Shown here in pieces: positions 1 through 2,343 of a stretch of 2,343 bases of DNA; the first letter of the stretch is position 1; each line of letters opens with the position of its first letter. Below the pieces are notes generated by a model. That model ran no database searches, had not been told where the DNA came from, and saw nothing but the letters and a program-made list of their open reading frames with translations. The position numbers and the translations under genes were made by a program. Source of the stretch: Dictyostelium discoideum (lineage: Eukaryota); the NCBI GenBank assembly GCA_000004695.1, contig CH709172.1:1-2343 (forward strand), given 5' to 3'.

Positions 1-232
1 TTATAATAATAATTTAAAAAAAATTTTTAAAAAAAAAAATAGTCTACAAAAAAAAAAGAATTAATTAAAAAGTAAAAGTATTTGAAATCAGAAATTTTTT
101 TATTTAATTGTGAAAATTCTAAGTGTATTAATGACTTTAACAAGGGTCATACAACATTTATAATTGACTAATTTGAAAAGCAGAACTTTATTTCCATTAT
201 AATTTGTACCAAAAGCATACTTTAGAAGGGGC

Positions 233-385
233 AACCTAAAATATAATTATTGTTTTTTAAATTATATTAATCTCTTTATTTTATATTATTTTTTTTTTTT
301 AAAAAAAAAATTATATTGACTTACCAGTAATTATTTAAGTGAAATATCAATTTGATTGAAAAGAAGTGATTGTTGGTATAAAGGT
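233..385. repeat. tandem repeat unit, copy 1
   Basis: Starts 'aacctaaaatataattattg'. Contains T12 (289-300) immediately followed by A10 (301-310). Core 'ttatattgacttaccagtaattatttaagtg' at 311-341. Confidence 0.6.
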
Positions 386-579
386 AACCTAAAATTTAAT
401 TATTGTTTTCAAATTAGTCTATTTTATTTTATTATTATTTTTTATTTTATTTTTTTAATTTTTTTTTTTTTAAAAAATTATATTAACTTACCAGTAATTA
501 TTTAATTGTAGTATCAATTTGTTTTAAAAGAACTGGCGGTTGGTTTTGATAGCATTGGTATTATTGATGAAGTTGAAGA
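386..579. repeat. tandem repeat unit, copy 2 (longer, with an extra 'cattggtattattgatgaagttgaagaa' segment)
   Basis: Starts 'aacctaaaatttaattattg'. T13 (459-471) followed by A6 (472-477). Core 'ttatattaacttaccagtaattatttaattg' at 478-508. Confidence 0.6.
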
Positions 580-684
580 AATCTAAAATAATATTTTTTT
601 GTTTATTTATATTAATCTTTTTATTTTTTTATTTTTTTTATTTTTTTTAATTTTTTTTTAATTTTAATTATCTTACCTTACCAG
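580..684. repeat. tandem repeat unit, copy 3 (truncated; ends at the junction with the retroelement coding sequence)
   Basis: Starts 'aatctaaaataatattttt'. Phased T7-T9 tracts at 621-661. Ends 'tcttaccttaccag' at 671-684. Weak similarity continues into about 705 ('ccagttttgatttagtggagtaa' versus 'ccagtaattatttaagtgaaata'). Confidence 0.5.
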
Positions 685-690
685 TTTTGA

Positions 691-1638
691 TTTAGTGGAG
701 TAATGGGCGATCTAACAACTTCAATGGATCACCAAGTAATGTTGCATCAGGTAGCAACAGTACCAAGTCTGTTTCCAAGTTACGACTATGTTCTTACAAC
801 CGATGCCTCGGAATCAGGTGCAGGTGCCACACTCAAGAAAGGAAACAAGGTAATCAAAACTTGGTCATTCCAATGGTCAACAACTCAATCAAATATGTAG
901 TCAAATCGTCGAGAAATGCTCGCGCTGCTGATGGCCTATCAAGCGCTATGTCGGAAACTGAACAACTGCAAGCTGAAGATTCAAACCGACAACACTACCA
1001 CTCTCTCTTACATCAATCGCCAGGGTGGTCAAATACAAGATCTCTCAGTTCTGTTCGAACAACTTTGGAAACAATGCCTCAAGAAGAAAGTGAACTTGAT
1101 TGGAGAGCATATTCCAGGATTCTTCAATGTAAAAGCCGACCACCTCAGCCGTCTTTCAGAGATGAATCACAAATCATCGTCCAGAGTAATCAAGAGTTAC
1201 AACTGGCAACTGAAGAAGGAAGTGTTCAATCGCATCCAACTTCAATTCGGTCAAATACAGATGGATCTGTTCGCATCTCACCTCAACCATCAAACGAACA
1301 ACTACTCAACAATCAGAATGAATGCACTCCACCTCGATTGGAGTCAATGGAAGCAATGTCTGGCCTTTCCACCTCCCATTCTTTTGCCTTATATCCTGGA
1401 GAAGATGAACTCATCCAGTTCGAAGAAGGTTTCTATAATACTGATCTTCCCAATCTGGAGATCAGCAACTTGGTATCCGATGATTCAAGCACAAGTTCCT
1501 CGTCGTCATCGTCACATGTTTGCTCAAGTACTGGGAACATTCCAAGAAGTATTGACCAAACAATCAGTAGAGTCGATACCAATCCAGATCCAACAACGTT
1601 GGAAACTGGGGATTATTCAACTTTCCAATCTCATGTAA
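691..1638 (+). pseudogene. pol fragment: RNase H plus DIRS-type methyltransferase-like (DLFAS/FPP) domain. N-terminally truncated (no RT) and interrupted by an in-frame TAG at 898-900. The ORF track splits it into 703..900 and 916..1638.
   Basis: Frame 1 opens after TGA 688-690. Catalytic-Asp motif TTDASESGAGATL at 796-834 (D codon 802-804). HIPGFFNVKADHLSR at 1108-1152. MDLFAS at 1261-1278. AFPPP at 1363-1377. Stop TAA at 1636-1638. Both listed ORFs are in the same frame (703 and 916 are both 1 mod 3). Confidence 0.8.
696..1637 (+). other. stop-free frame-3 (-1 relative to pol) reading frame contiguous with the YR CDS. Possible N-terminal extension of the YR ORF, dual-coding with RNase H/MT-like.
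   Basis: After TAG 693-695, frame 3 has no stop for 549 codons to the window end. The overlapping 313 codons translate to a Ser/Asn/Gln/Glu-rich, low-complexity sequence (for example SSTSSSSSSSHVCSSTGN at about 1488-1541). All 23 or so stop triplets in 696-1637 lie in frame 2. Confidence 0.4.
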
Positions 1639-2343
1639 TGTCCTTCGCTCGTACAACAAATACAAAAACAGCTGAGCTGTTAATGAAGTCTTGGGAACCT
1701 TCAACTCTCAAAGTATATAGCTCCAGTTATACAAGATTCCGCAATTTCTGTACTTTGAACTCTTTGAATCCAGCAAACATTACCTTAGTTGTTTTCATGG
1801 ATTATCTTACACATCTGTTCAAACACAAACCTCCGTTAGCCTTCTCAACAATTAACGGTCATCGCTCTATGTTGAATCAGTTGTTACTCCTTAGGAATCA
1901 AACTGATATTGTTAATGATCCATTCATTACAAGAATTATGACTGGTATTCACAAGTTGCGCCCTTCATCAGCAAATTATAAAGAGATATGGGATGCAAAT
2001 CAAGTATTAAAGCACTTATCTACTATCAAAGTCATCCCCAAGTACACATACACTGCGCTATTAAACAAGACACTTGTACTCTGTAAAATGTTTGGTTTAG
2101 CAAGATCATCAGACTTAGTGAAGTGGTCGTTCAAAGGTCTCATTATTACTCCTGACTCAATCAAAGGTCCAGTTACCAATGCTAAAGAACAAAGAAGTGG
2201 TGTTGTTTCAATCTTAAAATTAACATCGTTAGATGATACAAACTCTCAAGTATGCCCTGTTCGCCACCTTGCAACATACCTTAGAGCTTTTAAAGGAAGA
2301 AGAAAGCCCCATTCGGGTGACTCTGTCTTTATTAAGAAAAATC
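1638..2343 (+). CDS. tyrosine recombinase (DIRS/Crypton/phage-integrase type). N-terminal SAM-like domain and the start of the catalytic domain; 3'-incomplete at the window end.
   Basis: Frame 3. ATG at 1638-1640 overlaps the pol stop (ATGTAATG). Translation is MSFARTTNTKTAELLMKSWEPSTLKVYSSSYTRFRNFC...VVFMDYLTHLF...AFSTINGHRSMLNQLL...NYKEIWDANQVLKHL...LLNKTLVLCKMFGLARSSDLVKW. WD codons at 1989-1994. Conserved box-I Arg codon at 2103-2105. No stop through 2343. Confidence 0.8.
   Translation, partial: MSFARTTNTKTAELLMKSWEPSTLKVYSSSYTRFRNFCTLNSLNPANITLVVFMDYLTHLFKHKPPLAFSTINGHRSMLNQLLLLRNQTDIVNDPFITRIMTGIHKLRPSSANYKEIWDANQVLKHLSTIKVIPKYTYTALLNKTLVLCKMFGLARSSDLVKWSFKGLIITPDSIKGPVTNAKEQRSGVVSILKLTSLDDTNSQVCPVRHLATYLRAFKGRRKPHSGDSVFIKKN

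Follow-up and report, generated by a model that had tools for sequence, protein, structure and literature searches.

A structured AT-rich repeat beside DIRS-1 in an unplaced Dictyostelium discoideum contig is probably the interior of a 3-kb mobile element

The DNA analysed here, referred to as the window, covers the full length (2,343 bp) of CH709172.1, an unplaced contig of Dictyostelium discoideum AX4 that carries the partial gene DDB_G0294344 and has a GC content of 14-20% in positions 1-700 vs 34-46% in the rest. The AT-rich part (roughly 83% AT) had been described in a preliminary account of the sequence as a structured tandem repeat. Positions 1-702 are probably a fragment of a mobile element, about 3 kb long, AT-rich, multi-copy and bounded by terminal inverted repeats (TIRs), and the 'tandem repeat' would be its inner module, made up of three units of 150-195 bp each. 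Positions 693-2343 are DIRS-1, as is evident from the arrangement of the open reading frames (ORFs) and from 97-98% identity to other copies. Membership of a mobile element was among the possibilities raised in the preliminary description, and it agrees with the comparisons below, in which the region forms the interior of a TIR-bounded repeat family of about 3 kb. Comparison loci are given L numbers; those that match the AT-rich part, L005-L008, belong to two other D. discoideum strains that were assembled from long reads, and the main coordinates are collected in Table 1.

The repeat is directly observed in the window, and the strings, T(n)A(n) switches and unit lengths quoted in the preliminary description all lie where it had placed them. 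Units 1 and 2 each contain a T-run abutting an A-run, followed by the core TTATATT[GA]ACTTACCAGTAATTATTTAA[GT]TG and by CAATTTG..AAAAGAA (348-365 and 515-532). The anchor AACCTAAAAT occurs at 233 and 386, with CTAAAAT additionally at 583, and TTACCAG recurs at 321, 488 and 678; the anchor spacing gives unit lengths of 153, 194 and 105+. Units were compared by local alignment against 300 dinucleotide-preserving shuffles. The score of unit 1 (243-395) vs unit 2 (396-589) was 131 vs 29.5 +/- 4.4 in the shuffles (z 22.9), and those of unit 2 vs unit 3 (590-700) and unit 1 vs unit 3 gave z 9.2 and 7.0, respectively; none of the 300 shuffles reached the score in any of the three comparisons, so that the self-similarity is far above that of dinucleotide shuffles. 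Similarly, a switch from at least ten T to at least six A is present twice in the window, with at least one such switch in 1.4% of 2,000 shuffles and never two, and the longest exact complex repeat measures 20 nt vs a shuffle mean of 11.3 and a maximum of 17. Tandem Repeats Finder reported short T-rich periods only and no long-period array in the window.

The window holds 2.6 sub-repeat units, and the 5' part of the AT-rich region is not one of them. An older diverged copy had been proposed at about 120-232, with the repeat degenerating toward the 5' end; neither proposal held. Region 90-242 shows no significant similarity to any unit (z -0.5 to 0.4, with 93-222 of 300 shuffles reaching the score, and z 0.3 to 2.2 under softer scoring), and of the supposed copy only the last ~15 nt (GGGGCAACCTAAAAT, 228-242) belong to the repeat. 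The segment at 76-227 is a different part of the element, 85% identical to L006:6959-6813 and as well conserved as unit 1 in the other family copies (alignment A5). As to the short third unit, its length of 105+ was given correctly, but its shortness does not reflect decay, as the unit is cut at ~693-702 by the DIRS-1 junction; what is left of it matches the unit-3 core ATCTTACCAGTT[GA]TGATTTAGTATAGTA of L006, L007 and L008, in which unit 3 runs on with ...TCATTTATATTTAAAATAAGTGAAGTTGG. An origin of the units as decayed copies of the adjacent DIRS-1 was considered and rejected, the unit tails giving z -1.5 to 2.4 against 685-2343 on both strands.

Uniqueness of the core in the genome had been named beforehand as a counter-indication, and colinear copies were found at L005, L006, L007 and L008 (Table 1); L001-L004 gave only weak, AT-rich low-complexity matches to the AT-rich part of the window. 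The expected association with DIRS elements was found as well, in that the family is present in four of the seven D. discoideum loci fetched, all of them reached via DIRS-1 proteins and thus subject to sampling bias. In L007 and L008, the unique segment (window 76-227) is followed by units 1, 2 and 3 in unchanged order (five-way alignment A5), and L006 keeps the unit order with part of unit 2 deleted. The insert of unit 2, GATAGCATTGGTATTATTGATGA, is found whole in the same unit of L007 and L008, and in L006 a deletion has left only its first part; the core variant of unit 3, ATCTTACCAGTTnTGATTTAGT, is likewise common to the copies as a unit-specific feature. In every copy, units 1 and 2 retain the switch from T-run to A-run, the lengths of the runs varying (A5). 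In the loci compared, every occurrence of the units has the same place inside the 3-kb element, and there are no independent arrays. Neither the core nor the terminal repeat had any match (0 each) when metagenomes were scanned.

Among L006, L007 and L008, matching units share 94-99% identity and different units 71-86%, which indicates that the triplication is older than the spread of the copies. Judged from these alignments, the three-unit layout is ancestral and no local amplification took place in the window. The 'recent amplification' of the preliminary description is at odds with the copies of the other strains, which have the same units, order and unit-specific insertions. Selective constraint is not needed as an explanation, since the conservation is explained by the common descent of the copies. 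Roughly the first 60 positions of the window (A-runs, ATAGTCTAC) differ from every other copy; good conservation among the other copies sets in at ~62.

The homology between copies extends well beyond the part seen in the window. L008:12991-15168 aligns with L006:7336-5269 and L007:5075-2919 at 86-88% identity over ~2.2 kb, and the full copy is L007:2675-5633, 2,959 bp in length. Its tip, CACAGGGGCGAAAA...CTTAAAAGCAYCTTTAAA, marks L007:2675 and 5633 in opposite orientation (alignment A6) and does the same at L008:12929 and 18739; single ends are found at L006:7892 and L005:11137. At five termini the homology stops at one terminal base (CACAGGGGCG), and at least four unrelated flanks lie outside. 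Because a common terminal base, inverted tips and differing flanks together make up the structure of a TIR DNA transposon, the element would be a non-autonomous TIR (class II) DNA transposon, whose mobility we infer from structure alone. The flank at L005:11137, as read by translation, appears to be DIRS-1 antisense, which would suggest that the element inserted into DIRS-1. Each tip is followed inward by an array of a 13-bp repeat (TATACTTAATAAG / CTTAATAAGTATA); the two arrays are inverted relative to each other and hold 12 and 53.5 copies (697 bp for the latter), and the window begins ~115 bp inside the longer of them. At 2,959 bp, the full copy falls outside the miniature inverted-repeat transposable elements, that is, non-coding TIR elements of under about 800 bp. 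A deletion derivative, L008:17170-18739, keeps one tip and both 13-bp arrays and lacks element positions 1077-2021, and thus the whole three-unit module.

Further observations concern other parts of the element and its relatives. The 13-bp unit is partly palindromic and yields weak, spurious matches to microRNA models. A 57-bp tandem of 2.6 copies at L007 2911-3057 (L006 5263-5376) contains GAATCGAACCCGTG, the reverse complement of a sequence resembling the T-arm of transfer RNA (tRNA). ARAGORN reported no tRNA genes on L005 and L006, including the L006 copy of the tandem, and Rfam gave only sub-threshold results on the L007 copy, with a 13-bit match in the clan of tRNA and transfer-messenger RNA; the tandem may have to do with tRNA pseudogenes, which have been reported for centromeres 1 and 2. 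At L006 17792-18170 (L007 about 15548-15930), the same tip, CACAGGGGCGAAAT, is joined to a different interior of higher GC content, of which ~380 bp are present. On its inward-facing strand, this interior includes a stretch that looks coding (...LRRNFRKRKKLMNLKNMVEIQEIIMDKYKEQ...), with a homologue at L005 17479-17627, and the terminus may belong to a related, once-autonomous element. Gene models of 159-160 amino acids with kilobase introns are annotated across the element and beyond its ends (L006 3891-7989 and L007 1409-5821); they have no Pfam matches and are probably spurious calls on transposon sequence.

Table 1. Coordinates of the features in the window and of related features at the comparison loci
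Feature	Position	Strand	Remarks
Probable truncated interior of ~3-kb AT-rich TIR element	1..702	+	about 875-1561 or 880-1561 of L007:5633-2675
Unique conserved element segment, not a repeat unit	76..227	+	no significant similarity to units; conserved across copies (A5)
Sub-repeat unit 1	228..382	+	begins at GGGGCAACCTAAAAT; T12A10 289-310, core 311-341
Sub-repeat unit 2	383..577	+	T13A6 459-477, core 478-508, own insert GATAGCATTGGTATTATTGATGA
Sub-repeat unit 3, cut short	578..702	+	core variant ATCTTACCTTACCAGTTTTGATTTAGT
Element/DIRS-1 junction	693..702	.	TAGT microhomology 693-696 within ~10-bp imperfect similarity TAGTnnAGTA
DIRS-1 piece X	693..770	+	start of ORF containing the reverse transcriptase (M[A/G/V]DLTTS...)
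Internal DIRS-1 deletion breakpoint	765..771	.	6-7-bp direct repeat (A)AGTCTG
DIRS-1 piece Y	766..2343	+	starts in RNase H region
In-frame TAG in RNase H ORF	898..900	+	QSNM*SNRREM vs canonical QSNMSSNRREM (Ser)
Annotated partial gene DDB_G0294344, 465 aa	948..2342	+	DIRS-1 recombinase ORF running off contig
Match at L007	6-702		L007:4754-4073; 76-79% (79% over 725 nt), E to 1e-170
Match at L008	4-702		L008:13287-13996; 76.8% over 745 nt, E 3e-145
Match at L006	6-527		L006:7023-6491; 77.4%, E 4e-113
Match at L005	156-470		L005:18148-17809; 75%, E 3e-60
13-bp arrays	L007 4875-5571 and 2721-2877; L006 7100-7840 and 5084-5250		inverted orientation; 53.5 and 12 copies

Several points weigh against assigning the window to such an element. 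The window copy is ~10-12% diverged from the other copies, and its unit 1 is 87-88% identical to their unit 2 and 88-90% identical to their unit 1; the proposed orthology of its units draws mainly on colinearity and on unit-specific insertions and deletions. L006 and L007 share the flanks of the element and count as one insertion. No target-site duplication was found at L007 (= L006), the sole copy with both ends and flanks, where the flanks read ...GAAT/element/ATAT... and offer a 2-bp AT match at best, which is not above chance. A search for a transposase or an autonomous partner of the element found neither. On the minus strand, ACTTACCAG (in the core) and CCTAAAAT read as good splice sites (CTG/GTAAGT and TTTTAG/G), and on the plus strand a short ORF (YQFDLKEVVVGI...) is open in several copies. 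Lastly, the association with DIRS-1 clusters is sampling-biased, AX4 is represented by one copy, that of the window, and the copy count is that of the loci sampled.

The history that we propose for the window would begin with a triplication that arose once in the ancestor of the family, through tandem duplication by unequal exchange or replication slippage. The three-unit module would then have been copied passively with each multiplication of the element, transposition being the presumed mode of spread. The similarity of the units and the T(n)A(n) runs would thus reflect shared descent, with run lengths drifting by slippage, and neither gives a sign of sequence-specific function in this contig. 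The element in the window is broken in unit 3 and joined, probably via the TAGT microhomology, to a dead DIRS-1 whose 5' third is missing, in which 1,123 bp with the reverse transcriptase are deleted between the (A)AGTCTG repeats and whose RNase H frame is interrupted by a stop.

The identity of the family can be approached from the known composition of the centromeres of D. discoideum, which consist of about 49% DIRS-1, 19% DDT, 10% Skipper and 3% Tdd (PMC2665215). The transposons in them are highly fragmented and interleaved, and DDT is represented by about 150 fragments (Glockner & Heidel 2009, PMC2665215). DDT is likewise a putative class II element of D. discoideum that is strongly enriched in centromeric DIRS-1 clusters, and the element described here has TIRs, occurs in fragments interspersed with DIRS-1 and is comparably abundant in the loci sampled. 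The element is probably one of the catalogued DDT-type elements, an assignment made by abundance and location and not by sequence identity. Three of these, DDT-A, DDT-B and DDT-S, were reportedly described in D. discoideum by Glockner et al. in 2001. DDT-A and DDT-S are reported to be expressed, whereas the copies of the element studied here are without a convincing ORF, and the terminal sequence of the element was not found in the literature searched. Outside this group, elements of the CACTA, Mirage and Chapaev types have CAC.G tips and short sub-terminal repeats in direct and inverted orientation. The tips of the element also begin with CAC.G and are followed by sub-terminal 13-bp arrays (12 and ~54 copies), which makes for a possible resemblance; however, the tip is CACAG and not CACTA, no transposase was found, and a short target duplication would be AT/AT at best. 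It is unlikely that the 2.96-kb element constitutes a DNA-transposon family undefined in the D. discoideum catalogue, characterized by the CACAGGGGCG tips, the inverted 13-bp arrays, the 57-bp tRNA-like tandem and the three-unit module, and that this module, kept in most copies together with splice-site-like motifs, serves the element as a gene remnant or regulatory part.

The splice-site-like motifs also raise the question of whether the units are exon-intron remnants of a gene that was once in the element, e.g. a transposase, with the core as a splice junction and the T/A-rich stretch as an intron. The minus strand of every unit reads TTTTAG/exon/CTG/GTAAG(T/G), with intron-like spacers of 92, 106 and 102 nt, and in our own reading the 'exon' at window 388->325 joins in frame to the open segment 235->103. 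On the plus strand, several copies keep open frames for the peptides YQFDLKEVVVGI and GIDSIGIIDE and for the segment SKCFNDYNTGHTTF. The unit-1 segment of L005 lies ~180 bp from the homologous coding-like stretch, which also adjoins the CACAGGGGCGAAAT terminus in L006. D. discoideum DNA transposons contain introns, and one is recorded in thug-S (PMC4894637); because such introns are known, a decayed gene remnant is a minor possibility, which we rate as unlikely. Peptides of both strands had no match in 5.8 billion clusters or 1.84 billion representatives, and the plus-strand ORF that is best conserved (31 amino acids, 76-168) gave 0 matches in a full HMMER scan. Frameshifts break the minus-strand ORF of 103-246 in L006, L007 and L008, and its codon usage, with Leu encoded by CTT, CTG and CTA, is unusual for Dictyostelium; unit 2 of the window has stops in all minus frames, and L007 (ACTTCCCAG) and L008 (ACTTAGCAG) no longer have the minus-strand donor GT in their unit 2. 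The GC content of the region is just 14-20%, and it is 8-20% across most of the L006 copy. No reading frame combined conservation across the copies with homology to a known protein, and a minus-strand gene with duplicated exons (CTG/GTAAGT, TTTTAG/G) was rejected on the empty peptide searches and on the ORF being broken elsewhere. Structured RNA was no more apparent, with nothing at E<=1 from Rfam on the window, only sub-threshold results on L007, and folding close to shuffled controls (z +0.67 and -0.10). A gene remnant would be compatible with an origin of the repeat inside the mobile element, and would change only why the core is its best-kept part.

It is distinctly unlikely that the AT-rich block is not a transposon at all. 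Regions that are non-coding, have the G/C content of their surroundings and are exclusive to centromeres have been described in D. discoideum (Glockner & Heidel 2009, PMC2665215). The block is likewise non-coding, multi-copy and centromere-linked, with a composition like its surroundings, and is set apart from them, by their description, in having inverted termini and sub-terminal arrays. That neither a target-site duplication nor a transposase was found would fit such a region, as would the fact that L006 and L007 represent one insertion on a larger duplicated segment. These two loci are contig ends (JBTAPG010000024.1 and JBTAPG010000114.1) in which the element, its flanks and further sequence are 95-98% identical, over at least ~2.5 kb in the stretch compared; the two loci are either parts of a large duplicated segment or separate assemblies of similar repeats, and the two element copies themselves differ by ~9%, mostly in array length and the unit-2 deletion. 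A transposon is nevertheless favoured by the five termini that end at the same base with at least four unrelated flanks, one of them apparently DIRS-1, by ends that are mutual inverted repeats with inverted 13-bp arrays inside them, and by the related terminus with a different interior at L006:17792. Moreover, ~4 large copies in roughly 105 kb sampled fit the share of DDT better than a rare block.

The DIRS-1 side of the window comprises two pieces, X and Y. Piece X is 95-96% identical to L003:294-373, L004:17125-17204 and other DIRS-1 copies, and the corresponding N-terminus of protein P0047, MVDLTTSIGHQLILHEVAKIPSL, begins MVDLTTS.... Upstream of piece X, canonical DIRS-1 copies have the end of ORF1 and not the AT-rich repeat of the window, in which the end of ORF1 is absent (alignment A1). 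That the AT-rich region is itself a canonical part of DIRS-1 was considered and rejected. Two of the three mainly-DIRS-1 loci, L003 and L004, are without it, as is a D. firmibasis locus, with low-complexity AT matches only, and the third, L001, has one weak AT-rich match only. Piece Y contains RNase H and a Dam-like methyltransferase in the frame of 691, reaching 1638, and an overlapping tyrosine-recombinase ORF in the frame of 693, which is the DIRS-1 arrangement. The Pfam matches were PF17917, PF17919 (RNase H), PF05869 (Dam-like methyltransferase) and PF13102 (tyrosine-recombinase N-terminal domain). Piece Y is 97.4-98.1% identical over 1,573 nt to the L003 and L004 copies of another strain, and protein searches with the DIRS-1 frames of the window matched only Dictyostelium DIRS-1 gene models. 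Between X and Y, which in the canonical copy L004 end at 17204 and begin at 18322, respectively, 1,123 bp of canonical DIRS-1 are deleted and the reverse transcriptase domain is gone; this deletion was seen in none of the other DIRS-1 copies examined. Given the in-frame TAG at 898, the window DIRS-1 is a dead copy. The recombinase frame equals P0121 (DDB_G0294344) with 100% identity and 100% coverage, and the annotation spans this overlapping ORF only, leaving out the RNase H ORF. DIRS-1 has a length of 4.8 kb, inserts into DIRS-1-rich regions and is highly fragmented there. In L003, three head-to-tail copies in one orientation (at 1491, 5808 and 9819) are spaced 4.0-4.3 kb apart, below that length, and may be nested or truncated tandem copies.

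The two halves of the window meet in a short overlap. Family homology ends at 702, and the match to DIRS-1 starts at 693 whichever copy is compared; side by side, the other copies read ...TAGTATAGTATCATTTATATTT, DIRS-1 reads ...CCAGTAGTGGGAGTAATGGCC and the window reads ...GATTTAGTGGAGTAATGGGCG. The TAGT at the junction probably reflects microhomology-mediated joining, as far as the sequence can tell, and at the other end of the contig the long 13-bp array may have stopped the Sanger assembly. We also considered whether the junction, and not the repeat, is a cloning or assembly chimera in a small Sanger-era contig. The contig is an unplaced 2.3-kb scrap of repeat-rich reads, assembly difficulties are on record (PMC2665215), and the exact junction was seen in none of the other loci. 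A chimera is nonetheless very unlikely, because truncated or rearranged DIRS-1 pieces abut the same element in independent long-read assemblies (L005 left of the window-150 equivalent, and L008:15168-15170), and because the microhomology and a DIRS-1 part that is itself degenerate are what genuine debris of a centromere would show.

That the repeat is a satellite-like or centromere-functional sequence amplified locally, or a scaffold-attachment region, and is under selection, as had also been proposed, is extremely improbable: similarity is highly significant in roughly 83% AT DNA, units 1 and 2 have the T(n)A(n) switch in every copy and the repeat adjoins DIRS-1, the main centromere component, yet only three units exist, 76-87% alike with large indels and sited inside the element with no long-period array, the same three-unit set is found at other loci and in other strains, the family member L008:17170-18739 has lost the whole module, and satellite sequences were not seen in the assembled D. 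discoideum centromeres (PMC2665215). Across loci, the units number at most three per locus, are 71-87% alike and measure 153-195 bp, unlike a satellite. With the alpha-satellite type they share AT-richness, a nucleosome-size unit (153-194 bp) and centromere-type surroundings, but here three diverged, unequal units lie inside a transposon and there are no homogenised arrays.

In a genome that is well catalogued, the AT-rich repeat of the window amounts to ordinary transposon debris of the centromeric kind. The structured repeat, striking as it looked in DNA of such high AT content, is an inherited transposon interior, and not a satellite or functional array. The contig that carries it begins beside a 13-bp-repeat array of roughly 700 bp and ends in DIRS-1, which accounts for its being unplaced. 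The tips, the arrays, the module and the deletion derivative may aid masking and annotation of Dictyostelium centromeres in long-read assemblies and, if the family is uncatalogued, the element would add one more non-autonomous DNA transposon to a well-studied genome.

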